A stretch of 32,000 nt of DNA. Origin: Desulfocapsa sulfexigens DSM 10523. Lineage in GTDB: Bacteria; Desulfobacterota; Desulfobulbia; Desulfobulbales; Desulfocapsaceae. The position numbers were made by a program, and so were the translations under genes. Position 1 is the first letter of the stretch. The number at the start of each line of letters is the position of its first letter. The stretch is from assembly GCF_000341395.1 (NCBI RefSeq), contig NC_020304.1:390001-422000 (forward strand), given 5' to 3'. The notes under the pieces are model-generated. The model was not told where the DNA came from. It saw nothing but the letters and a program-made list of their open reading frames with translations, and made no database searches. Of the stretch, positions 3,754 through 20,165 are shown in pieces.

Positions 3754-4593
3754 TCATGATGCGGTAACGCTCAGCTCGAGGTTGGATACCATCATGCTCT
3801 TCCCCTCACCACGAAAGCTTCCTGAAACCGGAGCTGCAGAGTCGGCCCTTGGCCCCGCAGCCAGTGCCACGTGACGATCAGCTATTGCAAGTCCAACGGT
3901 GGGATCAAAGCCCTTCCAGCCGGCTCCGGGTAAGTAAACCTCAGCCCAGGCATGCAGGTAATTTTTACTATTTGGAAAACCTTCATGATAGCCGCTGACA
4001 AAGCGGGATCCAATCCCCTGGCTACGGCAACATGCCATGAACAGCCAGGTCAGGTCACGGCAGGCCCCCCTGCGTTCACGCAGTGTCTTTGAAGGTTCAT
4101 ACGGAGGACCTTCCTCGCGTAAAATCACCACGCATGTTGCGTAAAGCCGTTCGTTGAGTAACTGGAGGAAAGTCAGGGTGTCCCAGTTCGCTTCAGCAGC
4201 AATCTGATTGGAAAAAGTTGCCACCTCAGGCTCAGTGGTATCGGAAAGATATGGTTTAACAGTTGACAGGCATCTCCCTTCCCTGCTCAGCGGTAGGCGA
4301 GTCGCCTCCTCTTTGAGAAGAAATGCGAACGGATTGGTACAAAAGGTGACCACTTTGCTGTTCACCGTAACTACAAAACAATCAGTCATACCATTAAACC
4401 AGGCAACATGTTCCATATTGCCATCAAGGTCACGGCACTCAGTTAATCCGGCCGGATGCGGGCTGATATCAATGGTAAAATTAAGCAGCTGCTGCATTCC
4501 ATTGGTTCGCGGTTTGAGTCTGATGGTCTGAGGTTCAAGAAAAACAGGGTTCTCGTATCGATATGTTGTAGTGTGGGTTGCGGAAAATATCAT
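3754..4593 (-). CDS. Transglutaminase-like family protein (Bact_transglu_N + transglutaminase core)
   Basis: 279 aa. The N-terminus THTTTYRYENPVFLEPQTIRLKPR is typical of the bacterial transglutaminase N-domain. A Cys-His-Asp core is present: GACRDLTWLFMACCRSQGIGSRFVSGY ... HAWAEVYLPGAGWKGFDPT. An AGGAGA RBS precedes the ATG. Confidence 0.8.
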   Translation of the reverse strand: MIFSATHTTTYRYENPVFLEPQTIRLKPRTNGMQQLLNFTIDISPHPAGLTECRDLDGNMEHVAWFNGMTDCFVVTVNSKVVTFCTNPFAFLLKEEATRLPLSREGRCLSTVKPYLSDTTEPEVATFSNQIAAEANWDTLTFLQLLNERLYATCVVILREEGPPYEPSKTLRERRGACRDLTWLFMACCRSQGIGSRFVSGYHEGFPNSKNYLHAWAEVYLPGAGWKGFDPTVGLAIADRHVALAAGPRADSAAPVSGSFRGEGKSMMVSNLELSVTAS

Positions 4594-4703: not shown

Positions 4704-5534
4704 TCACAGTCCGGCCAGCCAGGCCAGAAGCACCTTTTTTTTAATTCTGACGTGAAGATCCGCCCTGATCTTGGCCTCCATACTTTCCCGTGTCAGTTTT
4801 TCAGCCGCTATAATTTTTTCACAGCGCAACACATGAAACCCCATATTAGACTCAACTATCTCGCTTATCTCTCCAGCTTCCATTTTAAAAAGAGTCTCCT
4901 CCAGGCTGGGATAAATTTGGCCTCGAGAGACTGGACTAATACTTCCCCCCTTCAAGGCTGAAGGACACTCGGAATAGCGCAGTGCCAGTTCACTGAAATC
5001 CACATCTGAAGACAGGGCTTTCTCACGTACTTTTGTTATTCTCACCAGGGCTGCCCGGCGGCTGTTATCAGGAAACTGGTCATTAATGGTTACCAGGATA
5101 TGACGCAGGCACCTTTGTTCCGGTTTTTCATCAACTGCAGATGTAAGTATTTCGGCTACCTGTTCCTTACCAGGAGGTTCAGCACGATCTGCAACCAGAG
5201 ACATGGTCGCGTCTACGGCAAGGTCTGCCTCAAGGGCCTTGGCCATGGTTTCATTATCCAGATTATTTATCCTCAGATCCTGCTCAAAAGCATCAACTGA
5301 TTCATAGCGACTGGCAATTTTTGCCATTGCCTCCTTAATGGATCTTGCTGGGACAACCACCTCCATACCTTCTTTGCTTTTTAAAATCTTTTTCTGCAGA
5401 GTGCACTCATCTTCTGCCCGTTTTCTCACAGCTCTCAAGGAATGAGAATCGAGTTTGTGGGGTGCACAGTGAAACATCTGCAGGGAAAATTTAAGCATAC
5501 TATAAGAGAGTAATGGCTGTACCATAAATATCAC
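4704..5534 (-). CDS. nifM: NifM-like parvulin-type peptidyl-prolyl cis-trans isomerase
   Basis: 276 aa. The C-terminal parvulin domain carries the NifM-like pattern RHILVTI ... FSELALRYSECPSALKGGSISPVSRGQIYPSLEETLF ... ESNMGFHVLRCEKI. The gene is divergent from nifH and has its own sigma-54-like promoter. Confidence 0.65.
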   Translation of the reverse strand: MIFMVQPLLSYSMLKFSLQMFHCAPHKLDSHSLRAVRKRAEDECTLQKKILKSKEGMEVVVPARSIKEAMAKIASRYESVDAFEQDLRINNLDNETMAKALEADLAVDATMSLVADRAEPPGKEQVAEILTSAVDEKPEQRCLRHILVTINDQFPDNSRRAALVRITKVREKALSSDVDFSELALRYSECPSALKGGSISPVSRGQIYPSLEETLFKMEAGEISEIVESNMGFHVLRCEKIIAAEKLTRESMEAKIRADLHVRIKKKVLLAWLAGL

Positions 5535-5903: not shown

Positions 5904-5918
5904 TGGCACACGCTTTGA
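5904..5918 (+). promoter_or_regulatory. Sigma-54 (-24/-12) promoter of the nifH operon
   Basis: TGGCACACGCTTTGA: the -24 TGGCAC is exact, the spacing is right, and the -12 is TTGA instead of TTGC. It lies about 120 nt upstream of the nifH ATG. Confidence 0.65.
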
Positions 5919-6016: not shown

Positions 6017-6868
<852 letters not shown>

Positions 6869-6951: not shown

Positions 6952-7308
6952 ATGATGATAATGATTCGCTCAATTATTCGACCTGAAAAAGCAGATGCCG
7001 TTATGGCGGCACTCATGGATGCAGGCTTTCCTGCAGTTACAAAATATGCAGTGGCGGGCCGTGGAAAACAGCGCGGTATCAAAATTGGTGACATCACCTA
7101 TGACGAACTCCCCAAGGTGATGTTGATGAGTGTGGTGAATGCAGAAGAAAAGGAATTCGTCATTGATACCATCATGAACACAGCACGTTCAAAGGGCAAG
7201 GGTGCCTTTGGTGACGGGAAGATTTTTGTAAGTGATGTGGAGGAGTCCTACACTATCAGTTCCGGTACAAAAGAAACTGCAGCCGCATCTGAGGGGGTAC
7301 CGGCATGA
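6952..7308 (+). CDS. nifI1: PII-like nitrogenase regulator NifI1
   Basis: GlnB-family fold (IRSIIRPEKADAVMAALMDAGFPAVTKYAVAGRGKQRG T-loop). It sits in the canonical position directly after nifH. The start among the ATGATGATAATG cluster is uncertain by a few codons. Confidence 0.85.
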   Translation: MMIMIRSIIRPEKADAVMAALMDAGFPAVTKYAVAGRGKQRGIKIGDITYDELPKVMLMSVVNAEEKEFVIDTIMNTARSKGKGAFGDGKIFVSDVEESYTISSGTKETAAASEGVPA

Positions 7309-7679
7309 AAGAGGTAATCGCTATTGTGCGTATAAATATGATGAATCAGACAAAGCGGGCTCTCACTGATTGTGGTGTCGACGCCTTCTTTGCCCATGAG
7401 GCCCATGGCCGAGGGAAGGGATTCGTTAATCCCAGGATTCTCGAAGGAGTAGAGCATGGCTACGAGGAAGCCGCCTCCCTCCTCGGAGAAAAAGGGAAAC
7501 TCTATCCCAAACGTTTACTCACGGCCGTGGTGGAAGACAGCATGGTTGGCTGTGTGGTGGACACGATCATCAACACAAATCAGACCGGCATGCCCGGTGA
7601 CGGGAAAGTGTTTGTTTTGCCCCTTAAAAATGCTATCCGGGTACGAACAGGTGAGACGGGCGAAAAAGCCATTGTTTGA
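7305..7679 (+). CDS. nifI2: PII-like nitrogenase regulator NifI2
   Basis: Second GlnB-like paralogue (EVIAIVRINMMNQTKRAL ... GRGKG ... PGDGKVFVLPL) with the longer T-loop typical of NifI2. Its ATGA start overlaps the nifI1 stop. Confidence 0.85.
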   Translation: MKEVIAIVRINMMNQTKRALTDCGVDAFFAHEAHGRGKGFVNPRILEGVEHGYEEAASLLGEKGKLYPKRLLTAVVEDSMVGCVVDTIINTNQTGMPGDGKVFVLPLKNAIRVRTGETGEKAIV

Positions 7680-7735
7680 TTTCAGGCTTTTCAAATAATA
7701 AACAACAAGAAAGCCTAACCAGAAGGAGTGCTGAA

Positions 7736-9376
7736 ATGGTAACAGCGACTAAGAAAAAAATGGTGCAGTGGGATCCTGCCGATGTCAAAGCGGAATTGAT
7801 TAAAAAGTATCCGCCCAAGGTAGCCCGTAAACGCGCCAAGCAAATAATGATTAACGAGGCATTGGAGAACGAAACGCCTGAAATTACGGCTAATGTCCGC
7901 ACAACTCCAGGTATTATCACTATGCGTGGCTGTACCTATGCCGGGTGCAAGGGCGTTATCATGGGTCCAACTCGGGATATCGTCAACCTGGTACATGGCC
8001 CCATCGGGTGCAGTTTTTATGCCTGGCTGACCCGCCGCAACCAGACCGATGCAGGTCCGGATGGAGACAACTTTATAAATTATTGTTTTTCAACTGACAT
8101 GCAGGAGCAGGACATCATCTTTGGTGGGGAAAAGAAGCTGGCAGCAGCAGTGCAGGAGATTTATGACCTCATGCATCCTAAATCCATAGCAATATTTGCA
8201 ACCTGCCCCGTGGGTTTGATCGGTGATGATATTCACACCGTAGCCAAGAACATGAAGGATAAGTTGGGTGACTGTAATGTCTACGCCTTTTCCTGTGAAG
8301 GCTACAAAGGGGTGAGCCAGTCTGCAGGTCACCACATTGCCAACAACCAGGTGTTCAGACACATTGTCGGTGAAAATGATACCCCAACAGAAGGCGAGTT
8401 TAAAATTAACCTTTTAGGTGAATACAATATCGGTGGCGATGGCTTTGAGATTGACCGTATCTTTAAAAAATGCGGTATCACTAACATTGCAACCTTTTCC
8501 GGTAACTCAACCTATGACCAGTTTGCCACGGCTCATCAGGCTGATCTGAACGCGGTGATGTGTCATCGCTCCATTAACTACGTAGCGGATATGCTGGAAA
8601 CCAAATTCGGTATTCCATGGATAAAAGTAAACTTTATAGGGGCGAATGCCACAGCCAAATCTCTGAGAAAAATTGCTGCCTATTTTGAAGACCAGGCGCT
8701 CATAGACCGGGTTGAAGCAGTGATCAAGGAAGAAATGCCCGAGGTTGAGACTGCTGTTGCCGATATACGAAGTCGTACGGAAGGCAAAACCGCCATGCTT
8801 TTTGTTGGTGGTTCCAGGGCTCACCATTACCAGGAACTTTTCAAGGAAGTGGGGATGAAAATCATTTCAGCCGGTTACGAATTTGCCCACCGCGATGATT
8901 ATGAAGGACGCCAAGTACTACCAAATCTGAAGGTAGATGCAGACAGTAGGAATATTGAAGAAATTGAGGTTGAGGCTGATGCAACCCGCTTTAAGCCACG
9001 CAAAACACCTGTGCAACTGGTAGCGCTGGAAGATGCCGGAGTGAAGTTCAAGCATTATGACGGACTGGCACCTGATATGGAAGAAGGCACTCTGATTATC
9101 GATGACCTGAATCAGTATGAGGCCGAAAAACTGGTGGAGATCATGAAACCGGATATTTTCTGTGCCGGAATCAAAGAAAAGTTTTCCATTATGAAACTGG
9201 GTGTGCCGATGAAACAACTGCACAGCTACGACTCCGGCGGCCCCTATGCCGGATTCCAGGGCGCCATTAACTTCTATCATGAGATTGACAGGCTGACCAG
9301 CTCCAAAGTCTGGACCTACCTGAAAGCTCCCTGGCAGGAGAGCCCCGAACTCACTGCCGCCTACGTATGGGAATAA
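7736..9376 (+). CDS. nifD: Nitrogenase MoFe protein alpha chain NifD (anaerobe type with about 50-aa insertion)
   Basis: P-cluster and FeMo-co ligand contexts are present: CTYAGCKGV, HGPIGC, TCPVGLIGDD, SQSAGHHIAN, MCHRSINY, LHSYD. The start is placed at ATG 7736, which follows GAAGGAG. The longer ORF from 7676 has no RBS and overlaps nifI2. Confidence 0.95.
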   Translation: MVTATKKKMVQWDPADVKAELIKKYPPKVARKRAKQIMINEALENETPEITANVRTTPGIITMRGCTYAGCKGVIMGPTRDIVNLVHGPIGCSFYAWLTRRNQTDAGPDGDNFINYCFSTDMQEQDIIFGGEKKLAAAVQEIYDLMHPKSIAIFATCPVGLIGDDIHTVAKNMKDKLGDCNVYAFSCEGYKGVSQSAGHHIANNQVFRHIVGENDTPTEGEFKINLLGEYNIGGDGFEIDRIFKKCGITNIATFSGNSTYDQFATAHQADLNAVMCHRSINYVADMLETKFGIPWIKVNFIGANATAKSLRKIAAYFEDQALIDRVEAVIKEEMPEVETAVADIRSRTEGKTAMLFVGGSRAHHYQELFKEVGMKIISAGYEFAHRDDYEGRQVLPNLKVDADSRNIEEIEVEADATRFKPRKTPVQLVALEDAGVKFKHYDGLAPDMEEGTLIIDDLNQYEAEKLVEIMKPDIFCAGIKEKFSIMKLGVPMKQLHSYDSGGPYAGFQGAINFYHEIDRLTSSKVWTYLKAPWQESPELTAAYVWE

Positions 9377-9488
9377 ACTGAGACTGAAGGTGGAAGGTGC
9401 ACAGGCTGAAGGGGAACAGACAAAAGATCTGTCCAGCATTCAGTCTTCACTCTTCAGCCGGATCACCTACTCTAAGAGGTATAAACAA

Positions 9489-10862
9489 ATGCTATTACGT
9501 CACACACGAAAAGAAATAGGGGAGCGCAAGGCCGTCAGTATCAACCCTGCAAAAACCTGCCAGCCCATCGGAGCCATGTATGCGGCTCTCGGCATTCATG
9601 GCTGTCTGCCCCACAGTCACGGTTCCCAGGGGTGCTGTGCCTATCACCGATCGGCTCTGACCCGTCATTACAAAGAGCCCATTTCGGCAGCCACTTCCTC
9701 CTTCACAGAAGGGGCCTCAGTCTTTGGCGGCCAGGCCAATCTCCTCCAGGGGATTAATAATATTTTCTCTGTTTATGAGCCGGATGTAATTGCCGTTCAT
9801 ACCACCTGTCTTTCAGAAACCATTGGCGACGATTTGCCCCAGATCAGGAAAAAGGCCCAGACAGAGGGAAAAATACCTGAAGGAAAATATGTGATAGGAG
9901 CCTCCACTCCGAGCTATGTGGGGTCGCATGTCACCGGTTTTTCCAACATGGTTAAATCCATGATTGAATTTTCGGAAAAAACAGGCAGGAAAAACGGCAA
10001 AATCAATATTATCCCAGGCTGGGTAGAACCCTGCGACATGGAAGAAATCAAGCGTATGGCCAAACTCACGGGAGTGGAAACAATTATGTTTCCTGACACC
10101 TCAGGTGTTTTAAATGCTCCCATGACCGGCGAGTACAAAATGTTCCCGGATGGTGGCACAACCATAGCGGAACTGAAATCCACAGGAGATTCTACCGGTA
10201 CCCTTGCACTCGGCGAATGGTGTTCAGCTGATGCAGCCAGAGTGCTTGACAAGAAATGTAAGGTTCCTTGCAGGGTGCTGGACATGCCCTTTGGTCTCAA
10301 GGCCACCGATCGTTTTGTCGATGCCATGAGAACCATCGCAGGGGTTTCCGTTTCAGACGAACTGGCTGTTGAACGTGGACAGTTGGTGGATATGATCACT
10401 GATATGCACCAGTATTTTTATAAGAAAAAAGTCGCCATTGCCGGTGATCCGGATCAGGTCATCGCCATGGTTGAGTTTCTCGTTTCAATTGACATGTGTC
10501 CGGTTCACGTGGTCACCGGAACACCTGGCAAGAAGTTTGAAAAACGGATTAAAGAAATCACAAAAGATAAAGGTTTTGAAGTGAATGTAAAAGCCAGAGG
10601 TGATCTCTTTCTTCTCCATCAGTGGATACAGAACGAACCGGTGGATCTTCTGATCTGCAATACCTACGGTAAGTACATTGCACGGGATGAGGATATTCCC
10701 TTTTTGCGGTGGGGATTCCCAATACTTGATCGCCAGGGCCATCAGTACTTTCCCACTGTTGGATATAAGGGTGGATTGCGTCTGCTGGAAAAAATTCTTG
10801 GTCTGCTTCTTGATCGCAAGGATCGGGATGATCCTGAAGAGTCATTCGAACTGGTTCTGTAA
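9489..10862 (+). CDS. nifK: Nitrogenase MoFe protein beta chain NifK (short N-terminus)
   Basis: Motifs CQPIGAMYA, HGSQGCCAYHR, TTCLSETIGDD and STPSYVGSH are present. The start is placed at ATG 9489, preceded by AAGAGG. The ORF-track start at 9390 is a GTG inside a structured spacer. Confidence 0.95.
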   Translation: MLLRHTRKEIGERKAVSINPAKTCQPIGAMYAALGIHGCLPHSHGSQGCCAYHRSALTRHYKEPISAATSSFTEGASVFGGQANLLQGINNIFSVYEPDVIAVHTTCLSETIGDDLPQIRKKAQTEGKIPEGKYVIGASTPSYVGSHVTGFSNMVKSMIEFSEKTGRKNGKINIIPGWVEPCDMEEIKRMAKLTGVETIMFPDTSGVLNAPMTGEYKMFPDGGTTIAELKSTGDSTGTLALGEWCSADAARVLDKKCKVPCRVLDMPFGLKATDRFVDAMRTIAGVSVSDELAVERGQLVDMITDMHQYFYKKKVAIAGDPDQVIAMVEFLVSIDMCPVHVVTGTPGKKFEKRIKEITKDKGFEVNVKARGDLFLLHQWIQNEPVDLLICNTYGKYIARDEDIPFLRWGFPILDRQGHQYFPTVGYKGGLRLLEKILGLLLDRKDRDDPEESFELVL

Positions 10863-10873
10863 GGAGTACAGCC

Positions 10874-11965
10874 ATGTATGATGGAACTTACACAGACCAT
10901 ATGGCGCTGCATGTCAAGCTGCCCATTGCTCCCCAGGCCAATCATCGACTAAGCGGGGCTGCAGATAGTAAAATAGATTCCACGTCCCTGGTTCCCGCCG
11001 AGGCCGTGGCCTGGGTGCAGGCACTCCGCAAAGGAGGGAAAAAAATTCAATCTATTGAACTCTGTGGCCCTGGTGATGTTCTGGCTTCGGTTCCGACTAC
11101 TTTGAATTGTCTGGAGCTTCTCCAGCCTGAAATTCATGATGCTGAACTTTCTTTGACCACTATCGGCCTGGGAGCCGCATCATTGGCCTCCACTCTGGCT
11201 CATTTTGGCGTAAAAACAGTGAACCTGCTGGTGGATACCGTCTCAGCTGAAACAGCAATGAAACGGTATGTATGGATCCGTCCTGCCAAAAAGAACGTCC
11301 CGATAACCCAGGCGTCCAGAATACTTATCAGTGCCCAGGCCGAGGCTGTACAGGCCTTAAAAGATGCTGGCATCAGAGTGATTGTACGATGCACTCTGGC
11401 TGCCGGAGTCAATGATGGAGAAGTTGCAGCCATTGCAAAAAAAATGGCAGGTCTGGGCGCCGGGGCTATGGAAATTGATGGAGAAGATGGCACCTACCTG
11501 GAAAAACTGTCCGGACTGGCTTCTACCTATCTGCCTGCGGCAGTCTACCAGGCTGCACCGGAGCTTCCACCTCCGGGAACACCAAACTCGTGTGCGGATA
11601 TCAGCATGCCTAAACCAACAGAAGGACGGCCGAATGTCGCTGTGGTCAGTACCAATGGAATGGATGTTGATATGCATCTTGGCCAGGCACCACAGGTACT
11701 GATCTACGGCCCCCGAGACGATGGTTTGGCCTGTCTCCTGATGGCCCGGCAGACACCAGGCACTGGCGGTGGTCCCAATCGCTGGAAGATCCTGGCTGAA
11801 GAGTGTCTCCACGACTGCTTTGCCCTTCTGGCAACCCATGCCGGTGATACACCCCGAAAAGAACTTGCCGAGCTTGGGATCCAGGTGATTCTCACTGAAG
11901 ACAATGTGGAAGGCCTGGTGGATGTCCTTTACGGCGGTGGTAAAAAAAAGAAATGTAAAAAATAG
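10874..11965 (+). CDS. NifB-like protein lacking the radical-SAM CX3CX2C motif, with C-terminal NifX/NifB-type (dinitrogenase FeMo-cofactor-binding) domain
   Basis: 363 aa, collinear by eye with the true NifB at 18882-20165, but the SAM-cluster cysteines are replaced (KLPIAPQANHRLSGA against [15 protein letters not shown]). The C-terminal domain NVAVVSTNGMDVDMHLGQAPQVLIYG...LLATHAGDTPRKELAELGIQV is NifX-like. An AAGGAG RBS lies 11 nt after the nifK stop. Confidence 0.7.
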   Translation: MYDGTYTDHMALHVKLPIAPQANHRLSGAADSKIDSTSLVPAEAVAWVQALRKGGKKIQSIELCGPGDVLASVPTTLNCLELLQPEIHDAELSLTTIGLGAASLASTLAHFGVKTVNLLVDTVSAETAMKRYVWIRPAKKNVPITQASRILISAQAEAVQALKDAGIRVIVRCTLAAGVNDGEVAAIAKKMAGLGAGAMEIDGEDGTYLEKLSGLASTYLPAAVYQAAPELPPPGTPNSCADISMPKPTEGRPNVAVVSTNGMDVDMHLGQAPQVLIYGPRDDGLACLLMARQTPGTGGGPNRWKILAEECLHDCFALLATHAGDTPRKELAELGIQVILTEDNVEGLVDVLYGGGKKKKCKK

Positions 11966-11977
11966 AGGAGAAGTACA

Positions 11978-12280
11978 ATGGCTTTACCGGAAAGAATGAT
12001 CCTTGTCTGCCAGTCGTTTCGTGTGGTTGGGGACAAGAAGGGAATCTGCCATAAGGGTACCGACGGGTTTCTGCAATACATTGAAGAAGAGGTGCTGGAT
12101 CGTGGGCTTGATTGTCTCGTCACCGCCACCACCTGCCTCAAGCAGTGCGACAACGGCCCCATCATGGTTATCCAGCCAGAAAACTGGTGGTTTAAAGGGG
12201 TTTCCAGTGAAGAGGCAATTGATGCCATCCTCGATGGCCTGGAAGATGGTGAGCCCGCGTCGGAATATCTGATTGGATAA
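11978..12280 (+). CDS. Thioredoxin-like [2Fe-2S] ferredoxin
   Basis: 100 aa with Cys11, Cys24 and the C53-x3-C57 pair (MILVCQS...GICHK...TTCLKQCDNGP). This is the same ligand pattern as the Clostridium pasteurianum/Aquifex thioredoxin-like 2Fe ferredoxins. A GGAG RBS is present. Confidence 0.75.
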   Translation: MALPERMILVCQSFRVVGDKKGICHKGTDGFLQYIEEEVLDRGLDCLVTATTCLKQCDNGPIMVIQPENWWFKGVSSEEAIDAILDGLEDGEPASEYLIG

Positions 12281-12372: not shown

Positions 12373-12807
12373 ATGGCCGACATCATCTTTTATGAAAAGC
12401 CCGGATGTATCAATGGTGAGAAACAGAAAGCCATACTCCGGGCCGGGGGACACTCTTTACATTGCCTGGACATCCTCAATTTTCCGTGGACACGTGAAAA
12501 ACTTCTGGCCTTTGTAATGGGAAAGAATCCTGTGGAAATGATAAATCAGACCGCCCCGGCGATAAAGCGTGGTGAAATCGTACCAAAACAGCTCACATTT
12601 AATGAAGCCGTCGACATGATGTTGCTGGATCCCATCCTAATCAAAAGACCTCTTATTGAGGTGGATGGTATGGCTATTCAAGGCTTTATGGACTCGCGTC
12701 TCACCCCCTACCTGGGAGACTGGGACAACAGTGTCGATGTGGTAACCTGTCCCAATCTGCAGGGCATTTCCTGTGATGAACAGAAGAGGGAAACCAATGA
12801 CATTTAA
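12373..12807 (+). CDS. ArsC/Spx-family 'nitrogenase-associated protein'
   Basis: 144 aa. IIFYEKPGCINGEKQKAILRAGGH ... APAIKRGEI ... DPILIKRPLIEVDG...QGF follows the ArsC-like, thioredoxin-fold nitrogenase-associated family pattern as I recall it. Confidence 0.7.
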   Translation: MADIIFYEKPGCINGEKQKAILRAGGHSLHCLDILNFPWTREKLLAFVMGKNPVEMINQTAPAIKRGEIVPKQLTFNEAVDMMLLDPILIKRPLIEVDGMAIQGFMDSRLTPYLGDWDNSVDVVTCPNLQGISCDEQKRETNDI

Positions 12808-12982
12808 GTCACACCTTGAATCCCGTGGAGAACGATGTCCGAAATGTGATTCCAGGGCAATAAAAACCAGTGATACACCGAAAAAGATACGTACTGACAC
12901 GGTACATGTTGCCATGTTCTGTGCCACCTGTGGTGCCAGATGGCGAAATATTTATACTCTCAGCAAATCCGAAGAATTGTAG
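12797..12982 (+). CDS. Zinc-ribbon miniprotein (CxxC...CxxC), function unknown
   Basis: 61 aa counted from ATG 12797, which overlaps the upstream stop by 11 nt. Two CxxC pairs are present: CPKCDS ... CATCGARW. The ORF-track start at 12773 would lie deeper inside the upstream gene. Confidence 0.5.
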   Translation: MTFKSHLESRGERCPKCDSRAIKTSDTPKKIRTDTVHVAMFCATCGARWRNIYTLSKSEEL

Positions 12983-12984
12983 AA

Positions 12985-13476
12985 ATGATCAACTCATCCA
13001 TTGCAGGTATGTGTGTGCGTCAGGCCAGGAAAGCCGATCTTGATGAGCTGGCTGGCCTGCTTCAGCAGCTTTTTACAATTGAGGAAGATTTCCGTTTCGA
13101 TGCCGCCCGGCAACACCGGGGACTCGAAATGCTGCTTGATCGTGATGGTGCTGTTGTTCTCGTTGCCGAAAAAGAGAACAACGTTATCGGCATGTGTACC
13201 GGGCAACTTATGATATCCACTGCCGAGGGTGGGCATTCCCTGCTTGTTGAAGATGTGGTGGTGGATGAGCAATGGCGAGGGAGAGGTATCGGCACCGGAC
13301 TGCTCAAGGCTTTGGAAGATTGGGGAGAAAAAAAGAAAGTATCCCGTTACCAGCTTCTGGCAGATAAGTCGAATGATGCGGGGATCAGATTTTACCGTAA
13401 ACACAACTGGCAGCAAACAGAACTTATCTGTCTGCGTAAACACCCATTGATGGGTACCAGCAAAGGAAAGGGATAA
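12985..13476 (+). CDS. GNAT-family N-acetyltransferase
   Basis: 163 aa counted from ATG 12985, 2 nt after the previous stop. It has the acetyl-CoA motif A (VVVDEQWRGRGIGTGLLKAL) and the C-terminal ...AGIRFYRKHNW. Confidence 0.8.
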   Translation: MINSSIAGMCVRQARKADLDELAGLLQQLFTIEEDFRFDAARQHRGLEMLLDRDGAVVLVAEKENNVIGMCTGQLMISTAEGGHSLLVEDVVVDEQWRGRGIGTGLLKALEDWGEKKKVSRYQLLADKSNDAGIRFYRKHNWQQTELICLRKHPLMGTSKGKG

Positions 13477-13483
13477 AGAGATC

Positions 13484-13954
13484 ATGAACAATACAAAGGT
13501 GGCAACACCCCCCTCCATGGTGGGATTTGGCGATATCAAGGGTAAACCGGAACCTATCGATGATTGGGATATTTTTCTCCATGATGGCGATGCCTTTTTG
13601 AAAACGGGCCTTGCTGCCCACACAAAAGGAAAAAAGGCCTTTACTCCTGAGATCCTTTACAACATCGTTGCCATGGCCATTGAAAAATTTGTAATGGCCG
13701 CCCTTATGCAGCGTGGTGCTCTGCCATACAACCATACTATGGGGGATCTGGTTGAGGCCATGGATGAAGTATTTCCTGATGCCATGGGCGATCTGAAAAA
13801 TAGTCTCCTTGATCTTGACCGTTACCAGGAGATTTGCGATGTGGATACCTTTACTGTCATCCCTCCTGCTTTTGAGGAAATCCCAAAGATGCTGACTCTG
13901 GCAGAGAGGATGCAAACTCTGGCATACCAAACAACAGGGGAGATAGAAAAATGA
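13484..13954 (+). CDS. HEPN-like domain protein (tentative)
   Basis: 156 aa. The helical segment ILYNIVAMAIEKFVMAALMQRGALPYNHTMGDLVEAM resembles the HEPN core (..A.EK.lKAll...R-x6-H..dL). The family call is tentative and made by eye. Confidence 0.4.
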   Translation: MNNTKVATPPSMVGFGDIKGKPEPIDDWDIFLHDGDAFLKTGLAAHTKGKKAFTPEILYNIVAMAIEKFVMAALMQRGALPYNHTMGDLVEAMDEVFPDAMGDLKNSLLDLDRYQEICDVDTFTVIPPAFEEIPKMLTLAERMQTLAYQTTGEIEK

Positions 13955-14268
13955 CGCTGAGACCACTGGGTACTGTGAGGGAAATTCTTGAATCTGCAGG
14001 AATGGGACTCTCCTACGCATACGAAGATCTGGTTTTCCTGGAACACAACGGCTTCCTGCTTCAGTTTACCGACAGGTCGCAGGAAGTACTGATACACATC
14101 AATGAAGAAGCAAAAGAAGAAGACCTGGCTTTTTCCCTGACACTGTTACAGGGGAAGGCTAAAGAAAACAGGATGGTTTTTAGCAGAGGGAGTTATTACC
14201 GGTTGAGCCAGGCTGATGAGGAAAATATCCGAATCGAGTTTTTACCAACTGAAAAATCTGTGAACTAA
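13951..14268 (+). CDS. Hypothetical protein, translationally coupled to the HEPN-like gene
   Basis: 105 aa. Its ATGA start overlaps the upstream stop. No motif was recognised. Coding is supported by the tight operon packing and by composition similar to the neighbouring genes. Confidence 0.5.
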   Translation: MTLRPLGTVREILESAGMGLSYAYEDLVFLEHNGFLLQFTDRSQEVLIHINEEAKEEDLAFSLTLLQGKAKENRMVFSRGSYYRLSQADEENIRIEFLPTEKSVN

Positions 14269-14278
14269 GGAGAATACA

Positions 14279-14500
14279 ATGGCCAGAGAAGATGTTGAGA
14301 AGTTGTTAATCGCCGGTGGAGAAGACAAACACCTGCGGGCAAAATATGATGTACCGGCAACCAGGGAGGAGTTTGTTGAGCTGGCTGCCAGTGAGGGGTA
14401 TGAGTTTACTGTCGAAGAACTTGACGCTATTCTTAAAGAGTCCGGAGATGTCTTCGAAAAAAATGGAAATCCCCCAAAACGCTCAATCTGGTGGACATAG
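14279..14500 (+). CDS. Nif11-family protein
   Basis: 73 aa. The N-terminus VEKLLIAGGEDKHLRAKYDVPATREEFVELAASEGYEFTVEELDAILK follows the Nif11 domain pattern (..L...d..L..kl.......e.v.lA.e.Gy.ft.eEl). An AAGGAG RBS is present. Confidence 0.7.
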   Translation: MAREDVEKLLIAGGEDKHLRAKYDVPATREEFVELAASEGYEFTVEELDAILKESGDVFEKNGNPPKRSIWWT

Positions 14501-14640
14501 ATAGTATTTAGGGGAGCCTCGAAAGACAGCTTTTCAAGGTCCTTTTAAAGGGTGTACTTGCAATAGACAGTAGTGTAATGGTTTGTTTTTTTAAATATCA
14601 GACCTGATTACTGGCCATTTATGATAGAGGTGGAATGGAA

Positions 14641-14680
14641 AAAGCAGAATCAACTGAATGATTCTGCTTTTCTCGTTTTT
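14641..14680. terminator. Bidirectional intrinsic terminator between the nif operon and the convergent usp gene
   Basis: A perfect 12-bp stem AAAGCAGAATCA / TGATTCTGCTTT with a 6-nt loop. It is followed by TCTCGTTTTT on the plus strand and by a T-run on the minus strand. Confidence 0.6.
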
Positions 14681-14753
14681 GTTACTTCAGACCTTAGCTT
14701 GGTACAGGTGCCCATGCCCCTCCACACACAATCTTGCATCACTTGAATAACAG

Positions 14754-15996: not shown

Positions 15997-16012
15997 TGGC
16001 ACAATCGTTGCT
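15997..16012 (+). promoter_or_regulatory. Sigma-54 (-24/-12) promoter of nifENB
   Basis: TGGCACAATCGTTGCT is a perfect TGGCAC-N5-TTGC, about 45 nt upstream of the nifE ATG. Confidence 0.8.
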
Positions 16013-16054: not shown

Positions 16055-17398
16055 ATGGAACTCTTAAAAGAACGAGAAGAACAGATTCATCGAACAGGTG
16101 AACAACCTTTCACTCTGACATGTAATAAAGACTCTCTGGCTGGAGCTGTGAGTCAACGGGCCTGTGTGTTCTGTGGCTCACGGGTGGTGCTTTATCCCAT
16201 CGCCGATGCCCTGCATCTGGTTCACGGTCCAATCGGCTGTGCTGTTTATACCTGGGACATCCGGGGAGCGCTGTCTTCGGGTCCCGAACTGCATCGTCTT
16301 TCATTTTCAACGGATCTTCAGGAAATAGATGTCATCTTCGGAGGCGAAAAGAAACTGACAAACGCCCTCTTTGAACTCATCGAACGCCATAGTCCCAAGG
16401 CCGCTTTTGTCTATTCCACCTGTATTGTTGGAATCATTGGCGATGATCTCGAAGCTGTGTGCAGAAATGTGCAAAAAGAGGTGAACATCCCGGTAATCCC
16501 TGTGAAATCAGAAGGCTTCAAGGGAAACAAACGTGCAGGCTACACCGCTGCCTGCAATGCCATGGCTCGTCTTATCGGTACCGGCGATACCACGGGAATA
16601 TCTCCCTACTCCATTAATATTCTGGGTGATTTCAATCTGGCGGGTGAGATCTGGATGATCCGTGAATATTTCGAACGTATAGGGGTTGAGGTGGTGGCCA
16701 ATATCACCGGAGATGGACGAATAGCGGATATTCAGCGTGCCCATGGTGCCGCCCTCAATGTTGTGCAGTGTTCCGGATCAACTATGGATCTGGCCAAAGT
16801 GATGGAGGATGAATATGGGATTCCTTCCATGCGGGTATCCTATTTCGGTGTCGAAGATATGGCCCAGGCCCTCTATGACGTGGCCGGACATTTCAACAAC
16901 CCGGAAATCATGGCGAAAACACAAGCGCTTGTAAAAGAAGAACTGCAGGAACTGCTGCCAAAACTTGAGTTTTACAAAAAAGCATTGACCGGCAAAAAAG
17001 CAGCTATCTATGTGGGTGGCTCTTTCAAGGCTTTTTCTCTGGTCAAGGCTTTTCGTCTGCTGGGTATGGATGTGGTCATGGTGGGCAGCCAGACAGGTAC
17101 CGAACAGGAGTATCGTGAACTCGCCGAAATCACTGACCCTGGCACCATCATTGTTGACGACACCAACCCCCTTGAACTTACCAGTTTTCTAGAAGAAAAA
17201 ACTGTGGATATCTTCGTCGGCGGAGTCAAGGAACGCCCCATTGCCTACAAACTCGGCGTTGGTTTTTGTGATCATAACCACGAACGTAAAGAGGCCCTGG
17301 CTGGATTTGTCGGGATGCTCAATTTTGCCGAAGAAGTGTACTCCTCTGTGATGAGTCCGGTCTGGCGCTTCACCTACCAGAAAGCAGAGAAAAAATAA
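16055..17398 (+). CDS. nifE: Nitrogenase FeMo-cofactor biosynthesis scaffold NifE
   Basis: 447 aa, NifD-like without the insertion. Motifs HGPIGCAVYTWD, STCIVGIIGDD, VVQCSGS and FCDHNHER are present. It directly precedes nifN. Confidence 0.93.
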   Translation: MELLKEREEQIHRTGEQPFTLTCNKDSLAGAVSQRACVFCGSRVVLYPIADALHLVHGPIGCAVYTWDIRGALSSGPELHRLSFSTDLQEIDVIFGGEKKLTNALFELIERHSPKAAFVYSTCIVGIIGDDLEAVCRNVQKEVNIPVIPVKSEGFKGNKRAGYTAACNAMARLIGTGDTTGISPYSINILGDFNLAGEIWMIREYFERIGVEVVANITGDGRIADIQRAHGAALNVVQCSGSTMDLAKVMEDEYGIPSMRVSYFGVEDMAQALYDVAGHFNNPEIMAKTQALVKEELQELLPKLEFYKKALTGKKAAIYVGGSFKAFSLVKAFRLLGMDVVMVGSQTGTEQEYRELAEITDPGTIIVDDTNPLELTSFLEEKTVDIFVGGVKERPIAYKLGVGFCDHNHERKEALAGFVGMLNFAEEVYSSVMSPVWRFTYQKAEKK

Positions 17399-17451
17399 CA
17401 CTGAGCAGGAAAGCACTGTCTCATTAAACAGTTGTATAAATGAGGGACATT

Positions 17452-18813
17452 ATGTCTAAAAATCCTCCCAATTACATTTCAACCACCAATGCCTGTAAAC
17501 TTTGCACTCCTTTAGGCGCAGCAATTGCCTTTAAAGGGATTGAAGGTGCGGTTCCCTACCTCCATGGTTCCCAGGGCTGTGCCACCTATATGCGGCGCTA
17601 TATCATCAGCCATTTTAACGAGCCCATCGATATTGCTTCGTCTTCACTTTCGGAAAAGCATGCAGTCTATGGCGGAGGTGCTAACCTCAAGCTTGGTTTG
17701 ATAAATGTCACAAAAAAATATCGTCCCCAGCTTATCGGAATTGCCACCACCTGTCTCACCGAGACCATAGGCGACGATGTAAAGATGTTTCTCAACCAGT
17801 ATGAGCAGGAAGTGAAAGGTGAAAAACCGACCATGGTTGAAGTGGGTACTCCGAGTTACAACGGCACTCACATGGAAGGCTTTCATAATGCTGTGGCTTC
17901 TGTGGTCGACGCGCTTGCTGGGAAAAAAGACGGCGGAGCCGAAGGAACTCCAGTGAATATTTTACCAGGATTTGTCTCTCCTGCGGATATCCGTTACCTG
18001 AAGGAAATCACAGAAGATTTTTCCCTTAACCCCACGATTTTGCCGGACATCTCGGACACCATGGATGGCCAGGCCGCCAAGACCTACGAAAAGATACAAC
18101 CAGGTGGAACTCCGATTTCAGCCATAGCTACCATGGGCAATGCCCTGGCCAGCGTGGAATTTGGTCACACCATGAGCGAGAAGAGCGGTGGTGCTATTCT
18201 TGCTGAAAAGTTTGCTGTGGAAAATATCAGAATATCTCAGCCCGTGGGGATTCGTGCTTCGGATCGTTTTTTTGATCACCTGGTAAAACTCTCCGGTTTG
18301 CCAATTCCTGAGAAACATCGGGCAGAGCGTGGTCGTCTAGTGGATTCCTATGTAGATGGGCACAAATATATCTACGGTAAGAAAGCCATAGTTTACGGAG
18401 AAGAAGACATGGTCGTCGGGCTTACAGCCTTTCTGGCCGAGATAGGCGTAATTCCCATACTTTGTGCCTCTGGTGGAAAGAGCAGGAAATTTGCCGAGAA
18501 AATCGCTGAAGCCACCGGGGATCTGCTGCCCGAACAGCCCCAGGTCCATGAAGGCATGGACTTCTATGACATCAGTGAGCTTGCCGAAAGCTTAGAGCCT
18601 GATCTTCTGGTGGGACATTCCAAGGGATATCCTCTGGCCCAGAAACTTTCCATACCACTTATAAGGGTGGGTTTTCCAATCCACGATCGCATGGGCGGGC
18701 AACGTATCCTTCACCTCGGTTACCGGGGGGCACAACAACTGTTCGATCTGATAGTGAACGCCTGCATTGCTAAAAAACAGAGCGATTCACCGATCGGTTA
18801 TTCGTACATGTGA
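17452..18813 (+). CDS. nifN: Nitrogenase FeMo-cofactor biosynthesis scaffold NifN
   Basis: NifK-like: LGAAIAFKGIEGAVPYLHGSQGCATYMRR, TTCLTETIGDD. ATG 17452 follows GAGGGA. ATG 17440 is an alternative start 4 codons upstream. Confidence 0.9.
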   Translation: MSKNPPNYISTTNACKLCTPLGAAIAFKGIEGAVPYLHGSQGCATYMRRYIISHFNEPIDIASSSLSEKHAVYGGGANLKLGLINVTKKYRPQLIGIATTCLTETIGDDVKMFLNQYEQEVKGEKPTMVEVGTPSYNGTHMEGFHNAVASVVDALAGKKDGGAEGTPVNILPGFVSPADIRYLKEITEDFSLNPTILPDISDTMDGQAAKTYEKIQPGGTPISAIATMGNALASVEFGHTMSEKSGGAILAEKFAVENIRISQPVGIRASDRFFDHLVKLSGLPIPEKHRAERGRLVDSYVDGHKYIYGKKAIVYGEEDMVVGLTAFLAEIGVIPILCASGGKSRKFAEKIAEATGDLLPEQPQVHEGMDFYDISELAESLEPDLLVGHSKGYPLAQKLSIPLIRVGFPIHDRMGGQRILHLGYRGAQQLFDLIVNACIAKKQSDSPIGYSYM

Positions 18814-18881: not shown

Positions 18882-20165
18882 ATGAAGACAACCGCTTCCA
18901 CCCCTGATTATTCCCGCCATCCATGCTTTAATGCTGAGGTCAAAGGAAAATTTGGCCGAGTGCATCTTCCCGTGGCACCAAAGTGCAATATTCAGTGTAA
19001 TTATTGTAACCGCAAGTATGACTGTGTAAACGAATCCCGGCCAGGTGTCACTTCCACCATTCTGTCACCGGAACAGGCTCTTGTCTACATGGATAAGGTC
19101 CTGACTGCTGAACCCCGCATCAGTGTCGCAGGTATTGCAGGTCCCGGCGATCCATTTGCCAATGCCAATGAGACCCTTGGCACCATGCAGCTTTTACGGA
19201 GACACTATCCGGATCTCATCCTCTGCCTCTCCAGCAATGGTTTGGGTTTGACTCCTCATGTGGATGAGGTTGCCGATATCGGTGTTTCCCATGTCACCGT
19301 GACAGTGAATGGCATCGATCCGGAAGTGACAAAGAATATATACAGCTTTGTCCGCGATGGGAAAATCATCTATCGCGGCTTGCAAGCTGCTGAACTTCTT
19401 CTAGCCAGACAGATGGCAGCTATTGAAAAGCTGAAATCCCGCGGTGTAACCGTAAAAATCAATTTTATCACCATTCCCGGAATCAATGATCATCACGCTG
19501 AAGCCACAGCAGAAACCATGGCAAAAATGGGGGTAGATCTTTTTAACTGCATGGCCATGCTCCCCAATGCAGATACACCTTTTGCAGATGTGGTGGAACC
19601 AACCAAGGCCACTATGAATGCACTGAGGAACGGCTGTGAGAGACATCTTCCTCAGATGCGCCACTGTAAGCGGTGCCGTGCTGATGCTGTTGGTTTACTT
19701 GGGAATGACAGATCAGGTGAAATGGCTGGCTGCCTCAATGCCTGTGCCACCATGCCCGCCACTCCTCCAAAGGTACGACCTTACGTCGCAGTGGCCAGCA
19801 TGGAAGGAATGCTTGTCAATCAGCACCTCGGTGAAACAACCAAGTTTCTTATCTATGGAAAAGAAGATAACGGCTATACACTCGTCGAGGAACGCAAGGC
19901 TCCACCCGTTGGTGGAGGGATTGGGCGCTGGGAGGCACTTACCAGATTACTCTATGATTGTCGGGCCGTTATTGTCAGTGACATGGGAGAATCTCCCAGG
20001 GAAGTCTTTAAGAGGGCTGGCATCGATCCTATTACCATGTCCGGTTTTATTGAAGCGGGACTGGAGGCTGTTTATACGGGAAAAAATTTAGCTCCCTTGA
20101 AAAGAAGGGCCAAGAAAAGTTGTGGCAGCGGTGCTTGTCTAGGTACTGGCACCGGCTGTGGTTGA
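18882..20165 (+). CDS. nifB: Radical SAM FeMo-cofactor biosynthesis protein NifB (radical SAM + NifX-like domain)
   Basis: Contains HPCFN...HLPVAPKCNIQCNYCNRKYDC (CX3CX2C), GPGDPFAN, SSNGL, HCKRCRADAVG and a C-terminal NifX-like domain. ATG 18882 is preceded by AAAAGGAG. The ORF-track start at 18810 overlaps nifN and lacks an RBS. Confidence 0.93.
   Translation: MKTTASTPDYSRHPCFNAEVKGKFGRVHLPVAPKCNIQCNYCNRKYDCVNESRPGVTSTILSPEQALVYMDKVLTAEPRISVAGIAGPGDPFANANETLGTMQLLRRHYPDLILCLSSNGLGLTPHVDEVADIGVSHVTVTVNGIDPEVTKNIYSFVRDGKIIYRGLQAAELLLARQMAAIEKLKSRGVTVKINFITIPGINDHHAEATAETMAKMGVDLFNCMAMLPNADTPFADVVEPTKATMNALRNGCERHLPQMRHCKRCRADAVGLLGNDRSGEMAGCLNACATMPATPPKVRPYVAVASMEGMLVNQHLGETTKFLIYGKEDNGYTLVEERKAPPVGGGIGRWEALTRLLYDCRAVIVSDMGESPREVFKRAGIDPITMSGFIEAGLEAVYTGKNLAPLKRRAKKSCGSGACLGTGTGCG

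Follow-up and report, generated by a model that had tools for sequence, protein, structure and literature searches.

A conserved NifB paralogue devoid of cluster ligands, encoded directly behind nifK in Desulfocapsa sulfexigens, is a candidate nitrogenase cofactor carrier

What is known of how nitrogenase's iron-molybdenum cofactor (FeMo-co) is trafficked comes almost wholly from Azotobacter and Klebsiella, with NifX, NafY, and NifY as the known participants, and to our knowledge the nifI1I2-type clusters of anaerobes usually carry no genes for these three proteins. In NifB, the radical S-adenosylmethionine (SAM) cluster, or RS cluster, is held by a CxxxCxxC motif (Rettberg et al. 2018, PMC6053413; reviewed in PMC10114646), the K1 cluster by an N-terminal cysteine, a strand histidine, a strand cysteine, and a cysteine or glutamate of the plug loop, and the K2 cluster by C-terminal cysteines (PMC6053413; PMC10114646). 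The idea of NifX-domain cofactor carriers is already established in general terms, and a 2026 electron cryomicroscopy structure of the NifEN-NifX complex has His35 of NifX coordinating one apical Fe of the NifB cofactor (NifB-co) during its hand-over to NifE (PMC13128457). Here we analyze a 363-residue NifB paralogue that has lost its cysteine ligands, hereafter dNifB, encoded from an ATG start at positions 10874-11965 (+ strand) of a 32,000-nucleotide stretch of the Desulfocapsa sulfexigens DSM 10523 genome (NC_020304.1, positions 390,001 to 422,000; hereafter the window), in an organism whose growth on N2 and reduction of acetylene make it a proven diazotroph (PMC3739170).

dNifB is collinear over both domains with the complete NifB of its own cluster (BLASTP 133 bits, E 1e-39, 28% identity); taken separately, the barrels are 28% and the NifX-like domains 38% identical. 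In a 90-sequence alignment from which ligand positions were read, substitutions or deletions have removed all nine conserved NifB cysteines, the K1 histidine, and the plug loop. The RS cysteines C35, C39, and C42 of the cluster NifB correspond to A22, L26, and A29, leaving no CX3CX2C motif; C15 of the N-terminal HPC motif faces a gap; the K1 ligands H28 and C115 have become K15 and S93; the plug loop YDCVNESRPG is shortened or deleted, its C48 with it; the K2 cysteines C262 and C265 of the C-x9-C-x2-C stretch are replaced by Q226 and P229 within a shorter linker; and the Cys-rich C-terminal tail has given way to YGGGKKKKCKK. No alternative conserved cysteine triad is found in the dNifB barrel, where Cys64, Cys79, and Cys173 are not conserved across the family. 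Because no RS, K1, or K2 ligand is left, dNifB is predicted to be unable to hold NifB's three clusters through the known ligands and hence to synthesize NifB-co; with four defining features absent, it is not NifB in the functional sense. An earlier note on this DNA, made from its letters alone, had described the open reading frame (ORF) as collinear with true NifB, with A, L, and A in place of the CX3CX2C cysteines, without the HPC and C-terminal C-x2-C positions, and with a NifX-like domain at its end, and had taken it for a catalytically dead NifB derivative; the alignment bears out each of the residue-level statements, and the loss of all three ligand sets is consistent with the predicted inactivity.

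The note had further proposed profile searches, a structural model, and a separate look at the N-terminal ~230 residues as checks on this descent, and all three point to NifB. Model TIGR01290 (NifB) matches dNifB at E 1.1e-28 (best stretch residues 34-196), far ahead of the next family, MoaA, at 4e-3, with a score of 100.2 bits that lies below the cutoff of 343.65; other family members score 105-192 bits. The Radical_SAM model PF04055 stays below its gathering threshold (21.7 vs. 29.5 bits, E 2.5e-4, residues 35-189), some homologues carrying a precomputed match to it, and the Nitro_FeMo-Co model PF02579 exceeds its own (32.9 vs. 26.3 bits, residues 262-347), which places dNifB by sequence in the NifX/NafY domain family. 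A profile built from 62 family members retrieves from the PDB the NifB chains 7bi7, 7jmb, 7jma, and 6y1x, aligned over profile positions 8-233 with E-values between 8e-28 and 5e-24, followed by MoaA at only 1e-3, and at its C-terminus also the NafY core domain (1p90). The AlphaFold2 (AF2) model computed on the family alignment (mean predicted local distance difference test, pLDDT, 89.7; predicted template modeling score 0.80) has, first, a partial TIM barrel built of beta/alpha repeats and, behind it, a domain of the beta2(beta-alpha)3 type. Its top Foldseek matches are the NifB structures 6y1x, 7jma, and 7bi7 (E 5e-16 to 1e-14; target-normalized TM-scores 0.71-0.88), with other radical-SAM enzymes some nine orders of magnitude behind, and its C-terminal domain finds NifX (9ian_F) at E 7e-7 and NafY (1p90) at 2e-4. 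Sequence and model together thus indicate that dNifB is a whole-gene, specifically NifB-derived paralogue, which would have arisen by duplication of the entire two-domain nifB gene, barrel and NifX-like domain alike.

That dNifB might instead be a member of the NifX family to which an unrelated N-terminal extension has been joined is an idea to which the precomputed Pfam annotation of many family members, listing Nitro_FeMo-Co only, lends itself. We reject it, and give it a negligible probability: residues 1-233 match NifB specifically, both in the profile search (E 8e-28) and in the fold comparison (5e-16), residues 1-250 match NifB and radical-SAM models only, with no NafY-type N-terminal domain among them, and the NifX equivalog model TIGR02663 gives no match at E up to 0.1. 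By architecture and equivalog models dNifB is neither NafY nor NifX, even if it may work like NafY/NifY or NifX; no dedicated NCBIfam model exists for the family. A 2017 survey excluded 28% of annotated NifBs, mostly for want of the Cx3Cx2C motif, on the assumption that they were NifX (PMC5715403), and for the dNifB family both the profile matches and the predicted fold indicate that this assumption is wrong.

The barrel of dNifB retains GPGD, YxWxRP, Q155, and N180, in keeping with the LPxAP, GPGD, YxW/FxR, Q, and N signatures that it shares with NifB, as the C-terminal domain shares the HxG and DC motifs. Such residues raise the possibility that the barrel still binds SAM, S-adenosylhomocysteine, 5'-deoxyadenosine, or another nucleotide without a cluster, as a sensor or a non-radical enzyme: GPGD, standing where radical-SAM proteins have their "GGE" motif, is invariant, and Q155 and N180 are kept. 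However, members of the radical-SAM superfamily rely for SAM binding on the unique iron of an RS cluster, which dNifB lacks, the asparagine of the T/S-N-G strand (97% in live NifB) is leucine or isoleucine in the RS-less family, and the Radical_SAM score falls short of its threshold, all of which makes a ligand sensor quite improbable.

The loss of ligands is a property of a family and not of one sequence. The deposited D. sulfexigens protein, entered as "molybdenum cofactor biosynthesis enzyme", is identical to the translation, and the closest 90%-identity clusters, among them Desulfocapsa, Desulforhopalus, Desulfolithobacter, and the cable bacteria Ca. Electrothrix and Ca. Electronema, show the same losses and lack CX3CX2C without exception (120/120), which excludes a sequencing error and establishes the cysteine loss as genuine. 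An exhaustive HMMER pass over 1.84 billion representatives returned 548 matches, of which the best ~60 are nearly all RS-less proteins of 350-430 residues, the few others being fragments; only after these does the first CX3CX2C-bearing sequence appear in the ranking. A profile of divergent members added 1143 clusters; the top 119 lack the RS motif without exception and come mostly from Desulfovibrionales such as Pseudodesulfovibrio, Maridesulfovibrio, and Desulfocurvus. All named members belong to the Desulfobacterota, organism names having been obtained for few clusters. Against its closest relative (locus L001; dS 0.88), dNifB shows a ratio of nonsynonymous to synonymous substitution rates (dN/dS) of 0.14 overall, made up of 0.17 in the barrel, 0.25 in the linker, and 0.05-0.06 in the NifX-like domain, and these low values indicate that both domains are under purifying selection.

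In light of these data, it is scarcely credible that dNifB is what a duplicated nifB leaves behind as it decays without function, or an artefact of annotation or sequencing, much as the disappearance of every catalytic ligand and the lack of the gene in the clusters of some close relatives might invite that view. More than 300 clusters from at least two orders keep the reading frame intact, and the low dN/dS, the conserved synteny, the confidently predicted fold, and the conserved ribosome-binding site and spacing lead us to reject it.

Whether the RS-less proteins share a single origin is less certain. A first neighbor-joining tree gave no clean split between dead and live sequences, owing to three outliers among the 60 RS-less representatives: one divergent sequence and two real NifBs truncated at the N-terminus. 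With the two fragments removed, the other 57 form one clan. Its bootstrap values are modest, at 69/200 for the RS-less clan alone and 129/200 once four low-Cys relatives with an intact RS motif are added, for which reason a single origin is likely but not proven. Tabulation of 309 full-length RS-less sequences reveals graded ligand loss. None of the K1 or K2 ligands is left in 129, the window's dNifB included, and the N-terminal cysteine is the sole ligand kept in 55, Electrothrix included; another 88, essentially Desulfovibrionales, retain the full K1 triad (HPC cysteine, strand histidine, and strand cysteine) and one K2 cysteine, without the RS cysteines, the plug-loop cysteine, or the other K2 cysteine. 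Unlike the dNifB of the window, these Desulfovibrionales members may, judging by their ligands, still hold an Fe-S cluster. Pseudodesulfovibrio mercurii (CP003220.1; locus L018, 10001-11176) is one instance, with an N-terminal HPCF motif, the strand histidine, the strand cysteine, one K2 cysteine, and no RS motif.

A complementary loss is found in a few same-position orthologues that keep CX3CX2C without the K1 or K2 ligands: P0199 (L021, 1408-2610) in the order nifK-X-ferredoxin, P0192 (L022, 139-1353) next to nifK with a ferredoxin following, and P0241 (L023, 10001-11296) within nifH-I1-I2-D-K-X-ferredoxin-nifENB, with a normal nifB after nifEN. Two further RS-intact sequences, P0182 and, more loosely, P0226, group with the RS-less clan yet keep most K ligands; beyond these two, no examined family member keeps the full ligand set for NifB-co synthesis. 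The dNifB of the window represents the most degenerate state of the family. Its only family-wide conserved candidate ligands both lie in the NifX-like domain: the HxG histidine, His268, is kept in 308 of the 309 RS-less homologues and the cysteine, Cys315, in 307.

The genomic setting ties dNifB to the structural genes (Table 1). On the + strand, nifH, nifI1, nifI2, nifD, nifK, dNifB, a [2Fe-2S] ferredoxin, an ArsC-fold protein, a GNAT acetyltransferase, two further ORFs, and a Nif11 ORF follow one another; nifV (+), nifA (-), a transglutaminase-like ORF (-), and a NifM-like peptidyl-prolyl isomerase gene (-) occupy the 5' part of the window, and a universal stress protein gene (-) separates the Nif11 ORF from nifE, nifN, and the complete nifB. 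dNifB begins 11 nt past the nifK stop, with a GGAG ribosome-binding site 8 nt 5' of its ATG, and ends 12 nt before the ferredoxin gene. By gene order in the genome paper it corresponds to locus tag UWK_00338; that paper lists UWK_00333-337 (nifH to nifK), UWK_00340, and UWK_00347-349, and skips the gene between nifK and the ferredoxin (PMC3739170). Matches to a sigma-54 type -24/-12 promoter number eight in the window against 2.8 expected, those near the cluster lying solely 5' of nifH and of nifE, and the scan found none between nifK and dNifB. Given the positions of these sites, the 11- and 12-nt gaps, and a first strong terminator-like hairpin only past the Nif11 ORF, dNifB is likely cotranscribed with nifHDK, and the perfect sigma-54 site in front of nifE indicates that nifENB forms a separate transcription unit. 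The earlier note's placement of the gene between nifK and a [2Fe-2S] ferredoxin is therefore correct, and its suggestion of cotranscription, still an inference, has gained in substance; so too has its remark that the cluster lacks stand-alone nifX and nafY, since no such ORF is present in the 32-kb window, where the only other NifX-type domain is that of true NifB.

The order nifH-I1-I2-D-K-dNifB-ferredoxin is kept in 15 genome loci, including metagenome-assembled genomes of Desulfovibrio and Halodesulfovibrio, and also in L017, L018 (P. mercurii), L020, and L023, and so recurs in both Desulfobulbales and Desulfovibrionales. In all related loci examined whose sequence continues beyond dNifB, the ferredoxin gene lies directly 3' of it; GNAT-orf-orf-Nif11 usually follows, and the ribosome-binding site and the tight spacing are conserved. 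The two small ORFs, orf156 and orf105, which have no match in Pfam, NCBIfam, or the PDB, accompany dNifB-ferredoxin-GNAT in each examined Desulfobulbales locus whose sequence continues to that point, and a Nif11 small ORF also closes the module in L017, L019, and L020. The ArsC-fold TIGR01616 gene between ferredoxin and GNAT is found in the window, L001, and L008 only and is absent from the other related loci.

A true nifB accompanies dNifB wherever the examined stretch reaches far enough past nifEN, and dead paralogues that activate live relatives are a common pattern. dNifB could accordingly be a pseudoenzyme partner that tunes the NifB-co output of true NifB by stabilizing it, by gating its plug loop or C-terminal stretch, or by accepting NifB-co directly at the mouth of its active site, and would then not serve NifDK; a barrel that is specifically NifB-like, held under purifying selection (dN/dS 0.17), and still furnished with NifB signature residues outside the ligand positions would suit such a partner. 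Such a role nevertheless appears unlikely to us, as dNifB is grouped transcriptionally with nifHDK and nifENB has a sigma-54 site of its own, and as the most conserved features of the protein, the histidine and cysteine of the NifX-like domain, would go unexplained.

Those two residues are what a cofactor carrier would account for. His268 lies in the HxG motif and aligns His-on-His with the NafY core domain (1p90), at the histidine that we take to be His121 of NafY, a FeMo-co ligand. Because the invariant histidine coincides with the cofactor histidine, a NifX/NafY-type cofactor chaperone is the sole plausible ligand-binding function left, and its near-complete retention strengthens the role of carrier or scaffold that the earlier note had put forward. 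The reading toward which we lean, with a confidence not far above even and on sequence and model grounds, is that dNifB is a non-catalytic NifB-co/FeMo-co chaperone in nitrogenase maturation, its likeliest task being delivery to apo-NifDK. NifA and sigma-54 would control its synthesis along with that of NifHDK; its NifX-like domain would bind finished or near-finished NifB-co or FeMo-co through His268, perhaps with help from Cys315 and the conserved Arg292 and Arg303; and the dead barrel and the polybasic tail would form a putative docking adaptor that brings the cargo to an assembly partner. With apo-NifDK as that partner, dNifB would resemble the FeMo-co insertase NafY/NifY (gamma protein); with NifEN as the alternative partner, it would be NifX-like.

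Gene position and the type of the neighboring ferredoxin favor apo-NifDK as the client. In the nifHDKTY operons of enterobacteria and Azotobacter, nifY sits directly behind the structural genes, as dNifB does here, and NafY likewise joins an N-terminal domain that does not bind the cofactor to a C-terminal NifX-type domain with the histidine. The dNifB N-terminal domain is, by contrast, a dead radical-SAM barrel unrelated to the small NafY N-domain, and the sequence similarity between the two proteins is marginal (E 0.02). As for the ferredoxin, the thioredoxin-like protein of Clostridium pasteurianum, of the same type as the dNifB neighbor, binds the MoFe protein, according to the passage of PMC8561814 that cites Golinelli 1997.

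The same neighbor suggests another explanation, in which dNifB is a component of a ferredoxin-centered accessory module that would deliver electrons to the MoFe protein, protect it, or regulate it, or would have a broader task under nitrogen limitation, and in which what the NifX-like domain holds is not the cofactor but a protein or a simple Fe-S species. The constant adjacency of ferredoxin and dNifB and the MoFe binding of the C. pasteurianum homologue (in the same passage of PMC8561814) speak for such a module, as does the fact that its genes stay together when detached from nifHDK: in Ca. Electrothrix laxa (OW818652.1; L019, 10001-13079), dNifB-ferredoxin-GNAT-orf144-orf103-Nif11 lies beside divergent amtB-glnK. 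Yet the ferredoxin does not depend on dNifB, as Nitratidesulfovibrio vulgaris keeps it directly after nifK without dNifB, and the invariant histidine is that used for NifB-co or FeMo-co in NifX and NafY (PMC13128457), so that we regard this explanation as improbable. The Ca. Electrothrix laxa orf144 and orf103 are the counterparts of orf156 and orf105 (60% and 51% identity).

Several observations weigh against the chaperone reading as well. No nifHDK genes lie within 10 kb upstream of the Ca. Electrothrix laxa module, although cable bacteria do encode NifHDK (PMC10030654); the module can thus be uncoupled from the structural genes, which weakens a strict link to NifDK. The nif cluster on plasmid pDVUL01 of N. 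vulgaris DP4 (NC_008741.1; L016, 6538-18776) has the order nifH-I1-I2-D-K-ferredoxin-nifE-nifN-nifB, with no dNifB, GNAT, or unknown-ORF genes, and the stretch examined contains neither dNifB nor a stand-alone nifX or nafY, a caveat to the earlier note's idea that dNifB may take the place of those two genes. Because this cluster shares the same core, dNifB is not universally required, and some sister clusters, at least, do without it; a tblastn search of PLSDB plasmids retrieved true nifB genes only. Furthermore, the true NifB of the D. sulfexigens cluster has its own NifX-like domain with the histidine, which would make a carrier role partly redundant, and A. vinelandii can do without NifX itself (PMC13128457). 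Finally, the K1-type site of the Desulfovibrionales members hints that what the family does may involve the barrel cavity in ways closed to the window's dNifB.

Compared with its described relatives, dNifB remains closest to NifB (TIGR01290; 6Y1X, 7JMA/7JMB, and 7BI7), its best match in sequence and fold by many orders of magnitude and its equal in two-domain architecture, from which it differs by the lost ligands, plug loop, and tail and by being encoded after nifK and not after nifEN, with a complete nifB in the same cluster. A conceptual parallel is HemW, a paralogue of the radical-SAM enzyme HemN that acts as a haem chaperone: in both cases a cofactor-biosynthetic radical-SAM paralogue would have been repurposed for cofactor trafficking, although HemW still binds SAM and its [4Fe-4S] cluster while dNifB has no cluster site left, and cofactor and superfamily lineage differ. 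The diversity of HemN-like proteins is reviewed in PMC10114718. Within the nitrogenase pathway itself, NifEN offers the precedent of a catalytic nitrogenase component duplicated into an assembly scaffold that does not reduce N2 (PMC8399215); it belongs to another protein family and keeps its clusters and assembly chemistry, whereas no chemistry is predicted for dNifB. With NifX (9IAN chain F), dNifB shares the fold of the C-terminal domain, the HxG histidine, and a flexible charged tail behind it, but places a 250-residue NifB-derived barrel in front and is encoded with nifHDK and not with nifEN. Its tail is polybasic, whereas that of NifX docks on a positively charged patch of NifE (PMC13128457).

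A broader proposal, possible if doubtful in our estimation, is that the nifK-adjacent NifB paralogues of Desulfobacterota constitute a new class of cofactor-trafficking proteins, in which a gutted barrel would mimic the docking surface of NifB, so that NifB-co or FeMo-co could be picked up at one assembly station and delivered to apo-NifDK in place of the separate NifX and NafY/NifY of aerobic model diazotrophs, and in which the graded states of the family (RS motif intact without K ligands, K1 site kept without the RS motif, and no ligands at all) would record the steps from radical-SAM enzyme to chaperone. The family itself is real, conserved, and apparently an undescribed variant of NifB/NifX, as neither a published description nor expression data were found in the literature, in agreement with the earlier note, which knew of no function for such a protein. 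It offers a concrete candidate for the missing NifB-co/FeMo-co carrier of nifI1I2-type clusters, a natural series of partial ligand losses in which to study the passage from radical-SAM enzyme to pseudoenzyme, and a part that could be useful when minimal nitrogenase pathways are rebuilt in heterologous hosts. Moreover, its public labels, namely "radical SAM protein", "NifB/NifX family molybdenum-iron cluster-binding protein", and "nitrogen fixation protein NifB", can inflate nifB counts and mislead the prediction of diazotrophy from nifHDKENB.

Table 1. Features of the nif region of D. sulfexigens, in window coordinates
Feature	Position	Strand	Basis or remark
Transglutaminase-like ORF	3754..4593	-	
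NifM-like peptidyl-prolyl isomerase	4704..5534	-	TIGR02933, 166.4 bits, slightly below the 168.2 cutoff
Sigma-54 type -24/-12 promoter-like site, 5' of nifH	5904..5918	+	TGGCACACGCTTTGA, 1 mismatch; presumed start of the dNifB transcription unit
nifH	6038..6868	+	TIGR01287, 442.7 bits, above cutoff
nifI1, P-II family regulator gene	6952..7308	+	
nifI2, P-II family regulator gene	7305..7679	+	
nifD	7676..9376	+	TIGR01282, 662 bits
nifK	9390..10862	+	TIGR01286, 444.9 bits
dNifB, degenerate radical-SAM (beta/alpha)6 partial barrel, residues 1-205	10874..11488	+	AF2, Foldseek, conservation
dNifB, remnant of the radical-SAM cluster loop LPVAPxCNxxCxYC, residues 16-29	10919..10960	+	LPIAPQANHRLSGA; alignment
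dNifB, poorly conserved linker in place of the NifB K2 CxxC stretch, residues 206-250	11489..11623	+	pLDDT 65-76
dNifB, NifX/NafY-type domain (Pfam Nitro_FeMo-Co), residues 251-352	11624..11929	+	PF02579
dNifB, His268 codon	11675..11677	+	
dNifB, Cys315 codon	11816..11818	+	
dNifB, glycine-rich polybasic tail, residues 353-363	11930..11962	+	YGGGKKKKCKK; conserved (consensus of two family alignments); low pLDDT
Thioredoxin-like [2Fe-2S] ferredoxin, Clostridium pasteurianum type	11978..12280	+	NF041612, E 1.4e-14, below cutoff
ArsC-fold "nitrogenase-associated protein"	12373..12807	+	TIGR01616, 114.5 bits vs. cutoff 109
GNAT acetyltransferase, conserved module member	12940..13476	+	Family match and synteny
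orf156, travels with dNifB	13484..13954	+	Synteny
orf105, travels with dNifB	13951..14268	+	Synteny
Nif11-domain ORF, 73 aa, last gene of the module	14279..14500	+	PF07862, E 2.4e-15; orthologue in L019
Strongest + strand terminator-like hairpin	14640..14681	+	13-bp stem and T-run; presumed end of the transcription unit
Second sigma-54 site, perfect TGGCAC-N5-TTGC	15997..16011	+	44 nt 5' of the nifE start
nifE	16055..17398	+	
nifN	17440..18813	+	
True nifB, catalytically complete	18882..20165	+	TIGR01290, 394.6 bits vs. cutoff 343.65

Three details of the underlying ORF list deserve mention: it omits the Nif11 ORF, which at 73 residues lies below the list's 80-residue minimum, and its starts for nifD (TTG, 566 residues; homologues ~546) and nifK (GTG, 490 residues; homologues 457) are probably too far upstream. 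The NifM-like gene, which stands with the transglutaminase-like ORF between nifA and nifH, would not be expected in a strict anaerobe with a nifI1I2-type cluster; it is kept in Desulfocapsa and Desulforhopalus relatives, and the transglutaminase-like ORF is matched in one related locus (L007). In N. vulgaris, the gene directly 3' of nifB on pDVUL01 is annotated as a Drt2 antiviral reverse transcriptase.

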